DNA from: Escherichia phage AnnaHegner_Bas87
DNA: 64,000 nucleotides
Reading direction: 5' to 3' (one strand)
Sequence record: PQ850594.1
Shown: piece after piece, positions 3,861 through 41,052 of the stretch
Numbering within the stretch: position 1 is the stretch's first letter
Layout of the letters: each line of letters starts with the position of its first letter
Program-made: the position numbers and the translations under genes
The notes under the pieces: generated by a model
What the model saw: only the letters and a program-made list of their open reading frames with translations
The model's database searches: none
What the model was told of the DNA's origin: nothing

Positions 3861-4097
3861 ATGAATACAAGACAGCAATTCAATAAAGAGCACGCCGCCG
3901 CTTTGGCGGCTCTCAATCACAACGGCATTCTTGACGCAGCATTAGAGGCATTAAAAGAAACCCTCATGAGAGATATTGTATTAACCGAGGCTCATGAGAA
4001 TAAGAAACGCGAAGAGTGTTATCAAAAGTATAAAATGGTTGGTAGCTTAAAAGAGGTCATAAAAGCTGCTATCAATAATGCAGGAGATATTTCCTAA
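3861..4097 (+). CDS. hypothetical small protein
   Basis: 78-aa ORF with RBS, abuts next gene (ATG overlaps stop). Confidence 0.4.
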   Translation: MNTRQQFNKEHAAALAALNHNGILDAALEALKETLMRDIVLTEAHENKKREECYQKYKMVGSLKEVIKAAINNAGDIS

Positions 4098-5179
4098 TGG
4101 CAAATGATTATATTGACCCGAACGATTTTAAATCTTTCCTCCAACTAGACGACTTAAAAGGCTCCTTTAAAGAAGAGCTTAGTCAATTAGAATCAGAACG
4201 TGAACCAGAAGTGAACATTGATGATGAATTCCCAGAACAGTCTGAGACTTTTGATCTTGATGCTTCCGACCTTCTCGGTGATGACGATACGTTAGCGTTC
4301 GAAGATGAAGATGGTTGGGAAGATCGTGAAGAGGAAGGCGAAGAAGAAGAGGAAGAGTCTGAGTTCTCTGATGAAGACGATGAAGAAGATGATTCCGGTG
4401 AAGCAGATCACGATGAAGCTGCTAACAGTGATGAAGATGGCGAAGAAGGTGAAGTCTTTGACGTAGATTATGAAACTGTTATCACCCTTCCTGATGGTCG
4501 TGAGATGACTATTGAAGAGTTGTCTAATGGCTATTTGACTGGTGCAGAAATGTCCGAACGTGAGACTACTTTGCAGCGTCATGTTGAAGCTTTTGAAGAA
4601 CGTGTTTCTGGCTTGGGTGATGTATTAGAACTAGCTGCCCTAGAAGCAGACCGAGTAATTGAAGATTACAACGGTTTTGATTGGGACAAACTCGCACAAG
4701 AAGATCCTCAAGCTTATGTAGAAAATAAACGTTTCTTAGAAAAATATACAGCTCGTCGCCAACAGCTTGAACAAGCTCAGCTTAAAATCAAGCAAGAAGC
4801 ACTAGCAAAAGAACAACAGCTCTTCCAAGCTAAATGTACTGAGTGTGTAAGCGTACTTAAACGTGAGATTCCTAATTGGGATGACAACTTGTATCAGAAC
4901 CTGATGCAGTATGCAATCGACTTAGGTGCTACAGAAGAAGAAGTGCTGAAAGAGAACCGTCCGTCAATCTTCCTAGCTCTACACAAAGCATACCAGTTTG
5001 ATAAAGGTAAGCAGCAGGTGATGGCTAAGATTAAACGTCCCGGCTCTCCACGCAAGGTTGTGAAGTCCGATGCTTCTAAGTCTCGTTCTTCCAATACGCC
5101 AGACAACGCTAAGGTTGCCAAGGCATTCTCAGAGGGTCGTATTCGTCACGAAGACGCATTTAAGTATCTCGTAGATTAA
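4097..5179 (+). CDS. scaffolding protein (probable)
   Basis: 360-aa highly acidic (E/D runs), helical/coiled-coil protein between portal and major capsid. Confidence 0.55.
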   Translation: MANDYIDPNDFKSFLQLDDLKGSFKEELSQLESEREPEVNIDDEFPEQSETFDLDASDLLGDDDTLAFEDEDGWEDREEEGEEEEEESEFSDEDDEEDDSGEADHDEAANSDEDGEEGEVFDVDYETVITLPDGREMTIEELSNGYLTGAEMSERETTLQRHVEAFEERVSGLGDVLELAALEADRVIEDYNGFDWDKLAQEDPQAYVENKRFLEKYTARRQQLEQAQLKIKQEALAKEQQLFQAKCTECVSVLKREIPNWDDNLYQNLMQYAIDLGATEEEVLKENRPSIFLALHKAYQFDKGKQQVMAKIKRPGSPRKVVKSDASKSRSSNTPDNAKVAKAFSEGRIRHEDAFKYLVD

Positions 5180-5219
5180 TCGACAAATTTATTTTTAATA
5201 GTATAGGAGCTAATATAAC

Positions 5220-6275
5220 ATGGCAAATCCAACTTTATTTGTATCTTACGACCAGAATGGTAAAAAACTTTCTTTTGCTAACTGGATTTCTGTCCTGTCT
5301 CCGCAAGACACTCCGTTTGTGTCTATGACTGGTAAAGAGTCTATCAATCAGACTATTTTCAGCTGGCAGACCGATGCTCTGGCGAGCGTAGATGCTAACA
5401 ACGCCCACGTCGAAGGCTCTCGTGCTGAAGATGGCGAAATGAAACCGACTGTAATCAAGTCCAACGTTACCCAAATTCTGCGTAAAGTTGTTCGTGTTTC
5501 TGATACTGCTAACACCACCGCTAACTACGGTCGTGGTCGTGAACTGATGTATCAGCTGGAGAAGAAAGGTAAAGAGATTAAACGTGACCTCGAGAAAATC
5601 TTGCTGTCCGGTCAGGCTCGTACCGATATTCTGGCAGACCAGTATCTGACCAACTCTGCAACTGATCCTGCTGTTGTAGGTCAGAATGATACCTCAGCTG
5701 CTCGTAAGACTGGTGCTTTCCAGTTCCTGTGTGCACACAATGGTGTTACTGGTGGTGTTGTTAAGAAAGAAGATGGTCCTGCTGACCCGGATACTGGTGC
5801 AGTAACTGTTAAAGTTGCACAGAATGCTTCTAACCCGACTACGAACATCGGTTTTGATGAAGCTGATATCTTTGATATGACTCTGCAACTGTATACCGCC
5901 GGTTCTGAAGCAGACATCATCATGATTAACCCTGCTCACGCTAGCATCTTTGCTAAGCTTCAGGAAAACTCTGTTGGTTCTCGTCAGCGTATCTTTGAGA
6001 ACACCAAACAGTTCATCTATGAAGTTAACAGCATCACTGACCCGCTGGGTCAGAGCTATAAAATCATCGTTAACCGTTGGATGCCTGCTGATGCAGTTTA
6101 CTTCTTCCGCAGCTCTGACTGGACTCAGATGGTTCTTCGTGCTCCGAAACGTACTGAACTGGCGAAAGATGGTTCTTACGAGAAATGGATGATCGAAATG
6201 GAAGTTGGTCTGCGTCACCGCAACCCATATGCTTCTGGTGTACTGTTCACCGCTGCGGGAAAGGTGGAGGCGTAA
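5220..6275 (+). CDS. major capsid protein (0-frame product)
   Basis: 351-aa ORF after scaffold with strong RBS; followed in -1 frame by an Ig-like extension. Confidence 0.7.
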   Translation: MANPTLFVSYDQNGKKLSFANWISVLSPQDTPFVSMTGKESINQTIFSWQTDALASVDANNAHVEGSRAEDGEMKPTVIKSNVTQILRKVVRVSDTANTTANYGRGRELMYQLEKKGKEIKRDLEKILLSGQARTDILADQYLTNSATDPAVVGQNDTSAARKTGAFQFLCAHNGVTGGVVKKEDGPADPDTGAVTVKVAQNASNPTTNIGFDEADIFDMTLQLYTAGSEADIIMINPAHASIFAKLQENSVGSRQRIFENTKQFIYEVNSITDPLGQSYKIIVNRWMPADAVYFFRSSDWTQMVLRAPKRTELAKDGSYEKWMIEMEVGLRHRNPYASGVLFTAAGKVEA

Positions 6276-6296
6276 CAGTTGACAGCGTAACTGTTA
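6257..6296 (+). promoter_or_regulatory. -1 programmed ribosomal frameshift signal: slippery heptamer G_GGA_AAG plus 9-nt spacer plus 8-bp stem-loop
   Basis: GGGAAAG at 6257-6263 in capsid 0-frame 10 nt before its TAA; perfect hairpin TAACAGTT (6273-6280) / AACTGTTA (6289-6296); -1 frame stays open to 7630. Confidence 0.6.
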
Positions 6297-7630
6297 GTCC
6301 CGCGTCAGTGGCTATTCTGCTGACCGGGGCTACCCAACAGTTTACAGCTGAAGCAGAACTAAGCGATGGCTCCACATCTACTACAGGCTTCGATTGGTCA
6401 GTAGCCGGTGGTGGGGCCATTTCTGTTTCTGGACTGTTCACTGCTCCGGGTTCGCCTCAAACCGCTGATATTGCAGTGACTGCTACTCTTAAAGGTGTAT
6501 CAGGTACTGCCGTTATCTCGGAAATTAAAGCTCCAATCCCTGACCCAGCTTCCATTGCCGTGACTGGTGGTGGTCTGACTGGTGACACTCTTACCTTAAC
6601 TGTTCCAGATGCTACCAACCTGACTGCTTCTGTATCTCCTGCTGGTGCACCTCAAGGCGTTACTTGGGAAATTGCAGATCAGACTAAGGCTACGGTAACA
6701 ACTGCTGGTCGTGTAACTGCTGTTGAAGCGGGCACTACTACTCTTACAGTTAAATCTTCTACTAAACCTTCTGTCACTAAAGTAATTAACCTTGTTGTTA
6801 ACCCCCAGCCTCCGACTATCGTAGCTAAAGCTGCTATTACTGGAAAATCTGGTGGAGATACCGTTGCTTTTACAGACATGTTTACCGTCCAACGCTCGGC
6901 TGCTAGTGATTATACTTTTGTAGTTACTCCAACTGCTGCTGGTACCGTGAATGCGTCCGGTCAGCTCTCTTTAGCTAGTACCGCTAGTGGTAACGTAACT
7001 GTTAAAGCTACTCACAAGACAGAAACATCTGTTACTGCAACTGCTAATATTAATGGTGTAACCCCTCTCCCAACGATTGAAGCGAAAGCTCCTATCACTG
7101 GTAAAGTAGGTGGTTCTACCACTGCATTCACCACCATGTTTACAGCAACCAATTCAGCTGCGTCTGACTACAATTTCGTAGTAACTCCAACTGAAGCAGG
7201 TACTGTAAGTGCTGCTGGTCTTCTGACCTTAGCTGACAGTGCTAGTGGAGATGTTACAGTAAAAGCTACTCATAAAACCCAGACTTCAGTAACTGCAACT
7301 TCTACCATAGAAGACGTAATACCTAAACTTACTGGTTTAGTTGTTTCAGCAGTGTCTGATGGGTCAGTAGCTGGTGATACTTTGACAATCTCAGACCCAA
7401 GCCAACCGGGAGTTTTTAACATAGCTTCTGTTCCTCAAGGTGCTCCACTAGGAACTATCGTATATGATGTAGAAGGCACAGATGCAGACAAATTGAGTAT
7501 TACCATTTCTGGTGATGCTTTAACAATTACGCTCTCTGGTGCTATCGCTAGTGAAGATACTAAAGTAACCCTGAGAACTGACCCAGGTTCTACAGTGTTC
7601 AAAACCTACACCGTTAAATCTGGTGCTTAA
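6257..7630 (+). CDS. -1 frame C-terminal extension of major capsid protein with Ig-like (Big_2-type) domains
   Basis: open -1 frame from slippery site; Big_2-like sequence (VTVSPASVAILLTGATQQF...) and internal repeats; no independent RBS at the in-frame Met 6185. Confidence 0.55.
   Translation, partial: GKGGGVTVDSVTVSPASVAILLTGATQQFTAEAELSDGSTSTTGFDWSVAGGGAISVSGLFTAPGSPQTADIAVTATLKGVSGTAVISEIKAPIPDPASIAVTGGGLTGDTLTLTVPDATNLTASVSPAGAPQGVTWEIADQTKATVTTAGRVTAVEAGTTTLTVKSSTKPSVTKVINLVVNPQPPTIVAKAAITGKSGGDTVAFTDMFTVQRSAASDYTFVVTPTAAGTVNASGQLSLASTASGNVTVKATHKTETSVTATANINGVTPLPTIEAKAPITGKVGGSTTAFTTMFTATNSAASDYNFVVTPTEAGTVSAAGLLTLADSASGDVTVKATHKTQTSVTATSTIEDVIPKLTGLVVSAVSDGSVAGDTLTISDPSQPGVFNIASVPQGAPLGTIVYDVEGTDADKLSITISGDALTITLSGAIASEDTKVTLRTDPGSTVFKTYTVKSGA
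6812..7327 (+). repeat. tandem duplication, 2 x 258 bp (86-aa units) within capsid Ig-like extension
   Basis: units starting PTIVAKAAITGKSGGDTVAFTDMFT... and PTIEAKAPITGKVGGSTTAFTTMFT... are clearly homologous. Confidence 0.6.
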
Positions 7631-34690: not shown

Positions 34691-34699
34691 TATACATTA
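34691..34699 (-). promoter_or_regulatory. phage promoter-like motif TAATGTATA (minus strand)
   Basis: ~60 nt upstream of start 34631. Confidence 0.4.
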
Positions 34700-34761: not shown

Positions 34762-34770
34762 TAATGTATA
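34762..34770 (+). promoter_or_regulatory. orphan plus-strand copy of TAATGTATA motif in ORF-free region
   Basis: no plus-strand ORF downstream; faces antisense to phosphatase gene. Confidence 0.3.
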
Positions 34771-34964: not shown

Positions 34965-35603
34965 CTACCATTCTAAAAGACCTTTAAAACTAGTTTGTTC
35001 TACTGTTCTCTGATAAGGTAAGTTAGATTCTGCTTGTTTGCTTAACATCTCTTGTACTTTATCAGTAATTGGATAATCTTTTTGTAATAAAGAAGCTATC
35101 CACTCTTTCCTACTTTCCAGTTCTTTTCTAATCTCTTGCAGAGACACAGCTTTGTAATCAATTTGTTCCATAGAGGTACAAAAATATCTCCAATCTTTGA
35201 TAGTAGAGTTATGAGTATGAGCATAGATATTATACTTTCCTCTCATTTCATCAGAGTGAATAGGAATATGAGTTACCCAAAATTCTTTGTATTTATAATC
35301 ACCACTGATGTGTCTAAAGACTTTCATCATATCAGGGAGAAGTTCTAATCTGTCATGATTTCCTAAGACAAGATGTTTCTCTCCCTTTACTTCAGCGATA
35401 ATATCAAGTGCATATTTCTCAAACACCCAATCACCTGTAAAGAAAGTTTTATCACGTTTAGTAACATGGTCGAACGCTGCTAAGATAGCTTTGTCATGTT
35501 CTTCAATACTACTAAACTTCTTTCTAAAATTACAGATGTTACGATGGCCTAGGTGACCATCACCTGCAAAATAAACTTCAGCCATTCTCGTATGTGTCCT
35601 CAT
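34965..35603 (-). CDS. metallophosphoesterase (Ser/Thr phosphatase-like)
   Basis: GDGHLGH and LVLGNHD motifs of calcineurin-like phosphoesterases. Confidence 0.65.
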   Translation of the reverse strand: MRTHTRMAEVYFAGDGHLGHRNICNFRKKFSSIEEHDKAILAAFDHVTKRDKTFFTGDWVFEKYALDIIAEVKGEKHLVLGNHDRLELLPDMMKVFRHISGDYKYKEFWVTHIPIHSDEMRGKYNIYAHTHNSTIKDWRYFCTSMEQIDYKAVSLQEIRKELESRKEWIASLLQKDYPITDKVQEMLSKQAESNLPYQRTVEQTSFKGLLEW

Positions 35604-35763
35604 AATATGAGTAGTTGAAGGATTCAGCTTTCGTTTCAGCCTCCTCCATATCGTCTGTTTCCAGAATCACTTTCCAGCCAGAACCTTCAGGATACTCAGC
35701 CCCTTCGTCTAGCCAGACTTTATACCGTTTAGATAGTGCAACCATCGCAGATATAATCTCCAC
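35578..35763 (-). CDS. small acidic protein (paralog of 36313-36492)
   Basis: shared pattern Y.VW..E..E....GW..IL.TDD.EEAE...N..YYE. Confidence 0.45.
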   Translation of the reverse strand: MEIISAMVALSKRYKVWLDEGAEYPEGSGWKVILETDDMEEAETKAESFNYSYYEDTYENG

Positions 35764-35932
35764 TCAAGGATTCTTGTAAGAGACGAGATTGCTCATCGGC
35801 ATACAAAGCATCAATTTCTTCCTTGAGCTTTGCAAGCTCTACAAAGTTGATAAGTTGCCCATAATCTGTCGCATCTGTGATAAATTGAAACAAACCTGTC
35901 GCATCATTTTTAATAATATATTCATTAGACAT
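35729..35932 (-). CDS. hypothetical small protein
   Basis: 67-aa ORF. Confidence 0.35.
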   Translation of the reverse strand: MSNEYIIKNDATGLFQFITDATDYGQLINFVELAKLKEEIDALYADEQSRLLQESLSGDYICDGCTI

Positions 35933-36156
35933 TATAGCAACTCCCTTTGTTTACTGTTGATAACAGTCATCGCTGTTACTGGGTTGTTTGTTCCAAGATA
36001 TTCTAGAACAGAGACACCCTTAGTCGGTTTATCAGCCTCTATGTAATTCTTAACCTTGCCACCAAGAACCGCTAGAGAAGCCTGAGCTTCTGCTTCATCA
36101 GTATGAACTCGGTCAACTGTTTTCTTTCCAATCGTGTAAGTGTGAACGTAAATCAT
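35932..36156 (-). CDS. hypothetical small protein
   Basis: 74-aa ORF. Confidence 0.35.
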   Translation of the reverse strand: MIYVHTYTIGKKTVDRVHTDEAEAQASLAVLGGKVKNYIEADKPTKGVSVLEYLGTNNPVTAMTVINSKQRELL

Positions 36157-36359
36157 TTAACTTCCTCAATATTGACTAATTCAAAACTTCCTATTTCTTC
36201 AAGTTTGATAATCTCTTTAACCTTCTCAACAGCTTTAATAGGGTTTTCTTCTTCTACAACTTTACACCCTGACACTTCAAGACTTCCTGTTCCACGAAGG
36301 TATAAATTTAACTTATAAACTACTTTGTAGTATTTCATCGTGCTCCCAATTTCTTTCAT
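36153..36359 (-). CDS. hypothetical small protein
   Basis: 68-aa ORF. Confidence 0.35.
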   Translation of the reverse strand: MKEIGSTMKYYKVVYKLNLYLRGTGSLEVSGCKVVEEENPIKAVEKVKEIIKLEEIGSFELVNIEEVK

Positions 36360-36492
36360 AATATCCAGAGTTGTAGTTTAGGGCGCATTTCTCGGCCTCT
36401 TCTATGTCGTCTGTGTTTAGGATATTAACCCAACCACCAACTTCATCAAAACCCTCTTCTTCTTCATTAAACCATACGCTGTATTTCTTCAT
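36313..36492 (-). CDS. small acidic protein (paralog of 35578-35763)
   Basis: likely ATG start at 36492 (MKKYSVWFNEEEE...). Confidence 0.45.
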   Translation of the reverse strand: MKKYSVWFNEEEEGFDEVGGWVNILNTDDIEEAEKCALNYNSGYYERNWEHDEILQSSL

Positions 36493-36664
36493 CTTGATAA
36501 GACTCTCCCCCAATCCTTGATGTAACAGCGACCGTCAACCCACTTGGTCTCTGATTTAAACTCTTTTGAGATTCGAGTCTCGCAATCTTCTTTACTGTAA
36601 TCTCCAAGAGCATCCATCGCCCAAAGAAACAGAGCAATTACAATAGACCAGATTAGAAACTTCT

Positions 36665-37057
36665 TCATCGTATCACCAGAGGCTCTTCAGAGTATACAGG
36701 AGAGGCTATTTCTACCGGAGGTGCTGCTCTAAGGTCATTAAGCCTTACGCCCTTCAGCATACCATCTAGGTGGTCCATTTTAGGGATACCTACAGGGAAG
36801 TCATCAATCCAAACATCCACAAAGAAACCCAAGCTCTGAGTGACGGAATCCTTCTGAACACCGTTGCAAAAGATAACAGGAATATCTAGACTTGCTGCAT
36901 CTGCTAGAAGCTCCTCATTTGAATACCCATTGGGTTGAGCAAAACGATAGGTGACAATACGTACGTCATGTCCACGAGATTTCATAAGACCTACAATGTG
37001 GGTCCACATCTCTTTGTCCACTGTAAAAGTATCATCATAATCTAAACCAATATTCAT
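36665..37057 (-). CDS. HAD-superfamily phosphatase (nucleotidase candidate)
   Basis: N-terminal MNIGLDYDDTFT = HAD motif I DxDxT. Confidence 0.5.
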   Translation of the reverse strand: MNIGLDYDDTFTVDKEMWTHIVGLMKSRGHDVRIVTYRFAQPNGYSNEELLADAASLDIPVIFCNGVQKDSVTQSLGFFVDVWIDDFPVGIPKMDHLDGMLKGVRLNDLRAAPPVEIASPVYSEEPLVIR

Positions 37058-37095
37058 ATTAGCCTCTTAGACAAGAAAAGCCACCCGAAGGTAGC

Positions 37096-37338
37096 TTATT
37101 TATTCTGTGTTTCCAGTTCGCTGATACGAACTTTCAAACCATTGATTTCAGCCTGAGCGGCTTCTAGCTTAATTAGAGCTTCTTCAGCGTCAGCTTCTGT
37201 TTGAAGAACCGCAGTAGTTAGTTCATACAAAGCCTGACGTAGTGAATCTTTGCCCATAGAATGAATCTGTGCAACAAAGAATTGCTTACCTTCAGTTGTT
37301 TCTAGAGTCTCTTTCAATTCTTTAGATGTTAAAGTCAT
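37096..37338 (-). CDS. hypothetical coiled-coil protein
   Basis: 80-aa ORF. Confidence 0.4.
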   Translation of the reverse strand: MTLTSKELKETLETTEGKQFFVAQIHSMGKDSLRQALYELTTAVLQTEADAEEALIKLEAAQAEINGLKVRISELETQNK

Positions 37339-41039: not shown

Positions 41040-41052
41040 GTATACATTATGT

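Follow-up and report, generated by a model that had tools for sequence, protein, structure and literature searches.

A pair of small acidic paralogs in the leftward polymerase and sigma factor gene cluster of Escherichia phage AnnaHegner_Bas87

Two acidic paralogs and the genes around them

We analysed a stretch of 64,000 nucleotides (nt) from Escherichia phage AnnaHegner_Bas87 (sequence record PQ850594.1; the window, in what follows), and within it two small genes, here called paralogs A and B, which stand among other short open reading frames (ORFs) between the DNA polymerase gene and a homolog of phiEco32 gene 40. A preliminary description of the window had pointed to a pair of related ORFs at 35578-35763 and 36313-36492. 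Both are present on the minus strand, as is every gene in this part of the window, although the first probably begins further downstream: 35578-35763 is the longest ORF, read from an in-frame upstream GTG, while the ATG at 35745 is the likely start of paralog A, since the version of 55 amino acids (aa) is the one annotated in phages SU7, 4E8 and Bas86. The ATG of paralog B is preceded by a ribosome-binding site, GGGGGAGAG. The coordinates of the pair and of the surrounding features are collected in Table 1.

Table 1. Paralogs A and B, neighbouring genes and expression signals (pI, isoelectric point)
Feature	Coordinates	Strand	Description
gp36-sigma promoter motif	34691..34699	-	TAATGTATA, exact; upstream of gp40-like gene, P40 equivalent, same place as in phiEco32
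metallophosphoesterase (calcineurin-like)	34965..35585	-	206 aa from ATG at 35585; upstream ATG at 35603; Pfam Metallophos E=6e-5
paralog A	35578..35745	-	55 aa from likely ATG at 35745; pI 4.10, net charge -9.5; ORF list
orf67	35729..35932	-	67 aa; phrog_11811; pI 4.05, net charge -9.5; homolog of phiEco32 gp43
orf74	35932..36156	-	74 aa; phrog_36005; N-terminal 40 aa homologous to phiEco32 gp44
orf68	36153..36338	-	61 aa from ATG at 36338; longest ORF (68 aa) extends to 36359
paralog B	36313..36492	-	59 aa, ATG start; pI 4.06, net charge -11.4; ORF list
orf59	36489..36668	-	phrog_14089; hydrophobic N-terminus; phiEco32 gp46 homolog, directly upstream of B
gp47-like	36665..37057	-	130 aa; phiEco32 gp47 homolog; first gene of the run
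terminator-like hairpin and T-run	37078..37097	-	just upstream of gp47-like gene; terminator annotated there in the SU7 record
gp36-sigma promoter motif	41041..41049	-	TAATGTATA, exact; upstream of DNA polymerase cluster; nearest upstream gp36-type candidate, P58-like position (equivalence putative)

Comparison of the two proteins by BLASTP gave 24 identities in 50 positions (48%) with a single one-residue gap (E=3e-13), and both match the same family of phage proteins, phrog_10314 ("unknown function"), A over residues 5-55 (E=3.4e-27) and B over residues 1-54 (E=1e-36). As judged from these alignments, the similarity is far above chance and the two are old, diverged paralogs. All the residues of the motif that had been described as shared are indeed common to A and B, its spacing being only approximate: there is one insertion or deletion in the acidic loop, and six residues, rather than three, separate EEAE from the following N.

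The strongly acidic character ascribed to the pair was confirmed. The net charges of -9.5 and -11.4 on 55 and 59 aa, both calculated from the sequence, correspond to -0.17 and -0.19 per residue, against a mean of 0.00 +/- 0.065 for the ORFs called in the window. Among these ORFs A and B are the most acidic per residue, at about 2.7-3 standard deviations from the mean. Their C-terminal tails are both acidic and aromatic (EDTYENG and ERNWEYEEEE). The ratio of nonsynonymous to synonymous substitutions (dN/dS) across relatives is 0.06-0.15 for A and 0.00-0.20 for B, with dS values of up to about 1-2, which indicates that both are real translated genes under strong purifying selection. Conservation is highest in B, 92-100% identical between this phage and phiEco32-type phages, while in the same comparison its neighbours show 76% (gp47-like), 59-71% (orf59), 54% (orf74), 46-64% (orf67) and 83% (gp40-like) identity; B is also more conserved than the phosphoesterase, according to the comparison of loci.

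The 2.2 kb around the pair are 99.8% identical to phage NC-B (MK310183; Kuravirus, Gordonclarkvirinae) and 88-94% identical to around 20 other phiEco32-like coliphages. In the direction of transcription the locus comprises DNA polymerase, several genes, gp47-like, orf59, [B], [orf68], orf74, orf67, [A], phosphoesterase, the P40 promoter and gp40-like, where brackets denote variable presence. This order is kept across the E. coli Gordonclarkvirinae loci compared, so that A and B occupy an orthologous position after the gp47 and gp46 homologs and before gp40. The three small ORFs said to lie between the paralogs were found, with 67, 74 and 68 aa, the last being 61 aa long if read from its ATG. 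The first of them, orf67, overlaps the start of paralog A by 17 nt; it is also very acidic and, unlike A and B, is missing from none of the full-length Gordonclarkvirinae-type loci compared. For orf68 there was no PHROG match, and the comparison of loci showed it to be absent in phiEco32 and Bas86.

At the upstream end of the run, the gp47-like protein, annotated everywhere as hypothetical, starts with MNIGLDYDDTFT and contains a DxDxT-like motif (GLDYDDTFT) and the sequence VWIDDFP. These resemble motifs I and IV of HAD phosphatases, which is suggestive of a candidate HAD-type phosphatase; no match to the protein was obtained in Pfam, NCBIfam or PDB sequences. At the other end, the stop codon of paralog A overlaps the start of the phosphoesterase. 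Read from its upstream ATG (34965-35603), the latter is a fusion of phrog_547 (residues 3-177) and phrog_14248 (residues 178-212); SU7, 4E8, KBNP1711 and Bas89 instead encode the C-terminal part as a small ORF of its own, in a different frame. Scanning the window for Rfam families and tRNAs gave no match. Far from this locus, a plus-strand ORF of 360 aa at 4097-5179 has a net charge of about -60 and a pI of 4.18; an almost identically placed gene of Bas89 (4099-5181) is annotated as a head scaffolding protein.

Predicted fold and distribution of the family

AlphaFold gave the same topology for the two proteins, with mean predicted local distance difference test (pLDDT) values of 82.7 for B and 77.3 for A: a strand, a short helix in the acidic loop, a strand, a helix, a strand and a disordered acidic tail. 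The BFVD model of the A-type protein of SU7 superimposes on the model of B with template modelling (TM) scores of 0.75-0.80. The predicted structure is thus a three-stranded antiparallel sheet, against one face of which a single helix packs. Residues Y4, V6, W7, G20, W21, T27, D28, Y44, Y45 and several Glu are invariant or nearly so in the family and, to judge from the alternation along the strands, conserved aromatic or hydrophobic side chains lie on either face of the sheet (Y4, V6 and F8 on one, W7, W21, L25 and Y44 on the other). Since a single helix can cover only one of two hydrophobic faces, we infer that the helix-free face may be an exposed, conserved aromatic surface for dimerisation or for binding a partner.

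The searches for known relatives gave no match for A or B in Pfam (at an E value of 1 or better), NCBIfam or PADLOC. A profile search of the PDB returned only noise, and Foldseek found nothing in the PDB at an E value of 0.001 or better. Profile comparison with sequences of T7 Gp2, phi29 p56 and T4 Dmd gave probabilities below 1%, the hhalign values being 0.2% for Gp2 and 0.15% for p56, and neither p56 nor Ugi was among the PDB fold matches listed. In the literature we found no transcriptomics of Kuravirus and no functional data on gp45 orthologs.

The family proved to be very narrow. An exhaustive HMMER search of 1.84 billion representatives yielded 5 clusters, a word-indexed profile search 14 clusters, and IMG/VR four loci, all of Gordonclarkvirinae. 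Among phages in GenBank it is present in 88-89 records, essentially all of them Gordonclarkvirinae of E. coli or Shigella; around 98 records encode a gp40-like protein with at least 80% identity. Members have about 45-60 aa, are very acidic and are rich in aromatic residues. In addition, a distant branch of 43-47 aa, with 28-40% identity and equally acidic, was found in 31 Stephanstirmvirinae myoviruses, and even in members which are only about 28-40% identical the charge stays between -0.14 and -0.28 per residue. On the basis of these searches the family is restricted to phages, namely E. coli Gordonclarkvirinae and the Stephanstirmvirinae branch.

The B-type protein, which corresponds to phiEco32 gp45, is the common form, and the A-type appears in around 22 records. 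Both are encoded in NC-B, SU7 and ECBP2, only B in phiEco32, KBNP1711, EcoN5 and 172-1, and only A in 4E8 and Bas86. Neither is present in Bas89, where a six-frame profile search of the complete genome detected no member, or in the syntenic slot of phage Paul, and more distant C3 podoviruses such as 7-11 and Privateer have gp40 in common but lack the family. Judging from this pattern, A and B are accessory genes, since phages carry both, either or none of them, and are under strong purifying selection where present.

In relatives, the variable slot attracts genes which by sequence resemble counter-defence functions. In one divergent locus (L008) a gene with a SIR2 domain (4883-5698, 271 aa) follows the gp47-like gene, and a Lar-like zinc-ribbon gene (6162-6341, 59 aa) lies between the family member and the phosphoesterase; in another (L009), a T7 Gp5.9-like gene (1027-1218) is located two genes upstream of the family member (P0008). 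Two metagenomic contigs carry truncated arrangements. An ENA contig of 699 nt (P0004) is a deletion chimera in which the N-terminus of B (...NILNTD) is joined to the C-terminus of the phosphoesterase (EMRGK...), and in a Logan contig of 937 nt (P0013) a Stephanstirmvirinae-type member is joined to the C-terminus of a T4_Y16D-like protein. These may be either real deletion variants or assembly artefacts.

Expression class, candidate targets and candidate partners

The run containing the paralogs had been presented as one of early ORFs, an assignment which does not agree with its position in the leftward cluster of polymerase and sigma factor genes. In phiEco32 this cluster, with the DNA polymerase, nucleotide-metabolism genes and sigma factor, is of the middle class, and mapping has placed promoters for the gp36 sigma factor (tAATGTAtA) upstream of several genes, 40 and 58 included (PMC8948821). 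The early genes of that phage are grouped elsewhere, in a block that synteny with the annotation of Bas86 places over 20 kb upstream of this cluster. The two minus-strand gp36-sigma motifs of Table 1 enclose A and B, the one at 34691 marking the downstream limit of their transcription unit, and for this reason the paralogs are probably middle rather than early genes, an assignment made by synteny. No convincing promoter was found between the terminator-like hairpin at 37078-37097 and the genes from gp47-like to phosphoesterase, which may be expressed by read-through of the hairpin. The motif TAATGTATA upstream of gp40-like is one of an inverted pair, 62 nt apart, the second copy being on the plus strand at 34762-34770. 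This arrangement occurs in all 11 E. coli Gordonclarkvirinae loci spanning the region, phiEco32 included, and transcription from the plus-strand copy would run in antisense direction into the phosphoesterase, A, orf67 and B genes.

The acidity of the pair had led to the suggestion of a DNA mimic or an inhibitor of host enzymes, such as restriction systems or RNA polymerase. As a generic idea, that of a binder or mimic remains the leading one, the acidity being real and kept throughout the family, although no match to a known mimic was found; the two named targets are both disfavoured. With respect to restriction, the BASEL authors report that Gordonclarkvirinae resist it without any known inhibitor, which makes an acidic, nearly universal protein a tempting candidate. 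A mimic of the Ocr/ArdA style, blocking restriction-modification enzymes, would agree with the high negative charge density of A and B and with the presence of the family in about 88-89 of the approximately 98 E. coli Gordonclarkvirinae-type records. Nevertheless, Bas89, which lacks the family, is fully resistant to six systems, two each of types I, II and III, with plating efficiencies of 0.2-2.5 (BASEL data). A product of a middle operon, outside the early block, would also come late for guarding incoming DNA, there is no similarity of A and B to Ocr, ArdA or other mimics, and PaulScherrer, which carries a distant homolog, belongs to the phi92-like phages, described as exceptionally susceptible to restriction. 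We therefore regard an anti-restriction role as improbable, bearing in mind that Bas89 provides a natural presence/absence comparison, in which a second mechanism could mask a contribution of the family to protection.

Bas89 also plates normally on at least four of the abortive-infection systems tested (BASEL data), and Bas86 (A only) and Bas90 (B only) plate like Bas89, the sensitivity of Bas90 to Fun/Z apart. The isolates Bas90, Bas91 and Bas92, with only the B-type gene, are sensitive to Fun/Z, while Bas86 and Bas88 (A only) and Bas89 (none) are insensitive (BASEL S1 Data, PMC11990801). B was considered as a trigger of Fun/Z and discarded, given that genus fully confounds the correlation among BASEL isolates and that Fun/Z also acts on many phage groups without a detected family member.

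An inhibitor or modulator of host RNA polymerase similar to T7 Gp2 seems more improbable still. Size, acidity and the strand-strand-helix-strand topology do resemble Gp2, but the hhalign comparison given above does not relate the two, the RNA polymerase isolated from cells infected with phiEco32 had only gp36 and gp79 bound to it (PMC12276001), and gp79 already fills this role in phiEco32-like phages.

The position of the pair next to the metallophosphoesterase leads to a different kind of explanation, in which a small acidic protein would bind the enzyme and tune or mask its activity, so that A and B would regulate, chaperone or inhibit it, or be subunits of a nucleic-acid end-processing module. 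The overlap between the stop of A and the start of the enzyme is an arrangement typical of translational coupling, in the divergent relatives L008 and L010 the family member lies 0-320 nt from the phosphoesterase gene, and in Stephanstirmvirinae a homologous phosphoesterase (31% identity) follows the distant member at about 0.7-1 kb, with an Rnl1-type RNA ligase and an AAA_33 kinase next in line; from its gene content, this looks like an RNA-repair operon. The shared neighbourhood stops short of the preceding genes, as no similarity was found between the gp47-like protein and the cREC_REC protein that precedes the Stephanstirmvirinae member. On the other hand, Bas89 and, in the syntenic slot, Paul keep the enzyme without a family member, and phiEco32 keeps B with only a remnant of the phosphoesterase, which together rule out an obligate coupling. 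Besides, the enzyme family is found in 941 phage records, almost all without the small protein, and B is the more conserved of the two. The recurrence of the association in two unrelated lineages is suggestive, and the partnership may be a facultative one, but we consider a role centred on the phosphoesterase unlikely.

Somewhat less likely is an accessory factor of the phage replisome, which would bind, for example, the DNA polymerase or the gp40-like putative single-stranded DNA-binding protein through its acidic and aromatic tail, as the acidic tails of SSB do. The location of the genes between DNA polymerase and gp40-like (annotated as a single-stranded DNA-binding protein in one record), the middle expression class, the composition of the tails and the extreme conservation of B, which fits a phage-internal partner, would all be in agreement with it. 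It is difficult to reconcile with the dispensability of the family in Bas89 and Paul and with its absence from 7-11, Privateer and other distant C3 podoviruses in which a gp40-like gene is present.

Our tentative proposal, put forward by analogy, is that A and B may be dispensable acidic decoys or binders of a nucleic-acid-handling protein, of the host or of the phage, during replication. The idea of a decoy derives from their charge, size and aromatic surface and from the analogy with small acidic phage inhibitors. The proteins would be made together with the middle genes for replication and nucleotide metabolism from gp36-sigma promoters, and each paralog would work in stoichiometric amounts as an inhibitor or decoy, using a surface rich in carboxylates and the exposed aromatic face to occupy a basic nucleic-acid-binding site on the partner. 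The most plausible partner would be a host nuclease or repair enzyme attacking replicating phage DNA, for example of the RecBCD or the uracil-glycosylase type, and the two paralogs might be redundant or tuned to variant targets. T7 gp5.9 would be a parallel case, its gene also following closely that of the DNA polymerase. Several facts weigh against this proposal. The searches above linked A and B, by sequence or by fold, to no characterised mimic or inhibitor; the very strong conservation of B is unusual for proteins in an arms race and would suit a housekeeping contact with a phage protein just as well; in both of its branches the family adjoins a metallophosphoesterase gene, which hints at a phage-internal partner; and Bas89, lacking the family, shows no phenotype against the ten restriction and abortive-infection systems read. 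A more ambitious version, to which we give as little credit as to the replisome factor, is that the family constitutes a new fold class of nucleic-acid-mimic inhibitor which would disable a host hub outside the BASEL panel (RecBCD, uracil-DNA glycosylase or an RNA-targeting nuclease) and would have been exchanged together with the end-healing metallophosphoesterase between Gordonclarkvirinae and Stephanstirmvirinae, with the paralogs covering different variants of the target.

Gordonclarkvirinae are abundant, have a broad host range and are relevant for therapy, while their molecular biology is poorly known and most of their small middle and early proteins are without an assigned function. For one such family there is now a predicted fold, a charge, a conserved aromatic face, a temporal class by synteny, a distribution and a set of copy-number variants, and the use of BASEL isolates as natural knock-outs has made an anti-restriction role disfavoured. 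If inhibition of a host nuclease or repair enzyme were true, A and B would represent a new family of small inhibitors; otherwise, they would be one more dispensable orphan gene family.

Comparison with known systems

The closest counterpart of the pair is phiEco32 gp45 (phi32_45, YP_001671790). B is its ortholog (94% identity over 53 aa) and takes up an equivalent position behind the gp47 and gp46 homologs, and A is a paralog within the same PHROG, phrog_10314. Database records annotate the gp45 family only as "hypothetical protein" or "unknown function". In phiEco32 there is a single copy and no intact downstream phosphoesterase, whereas the phage analysed here has two copies.

Among characterised proteins, T7 gp5.9 is an acidic inhibitor of RecBCD of about 52 aa, encoded just downstream of the DNA polymerase gene. 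A and B are likewise small and acidic and belong to a DNA-metabolism block, but have no match to the gp5.9 family (PF25708), and their predicted sheet and helix differ from gp5.9, whose fold is a coiled-coil dimer. As for T7 Gp2, the RNA polymerase inhibitor (PDB 2wnm), there is no profile similarity to A and B, the match not being significant.

The uracil-DNA glycosylase inhibitors phi29 p56 and PBS2 Ugi are small, acidic DNA mimics of phages, built of a sheet plus helix, and A and B resemble them in size, acidity and predicted fold; the profile comparison with p56 gave no match, and neither inhibitor was among the fold matches listed. The BASEL authors speculate that Gordonclarkvirinae may use DNA containing deoxyuridine, which would require an inhibitor of uracil-DNA glycosylase.

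A very high negative charge density, judged in A and B from the sequence, is also common to these two and to Ocr and ArdA. The latter are larger proteins of elongated shape, and T7 expresses the Ocr gene before any other; A and B differ from them in the lack of homology or fold match, in their location in a middle operon and in having natural presence/absence variants without a restriction phenotype. Taken together, these comparisons place A and B as uncharacterised members of a familiar class of small acidic phage proteins.

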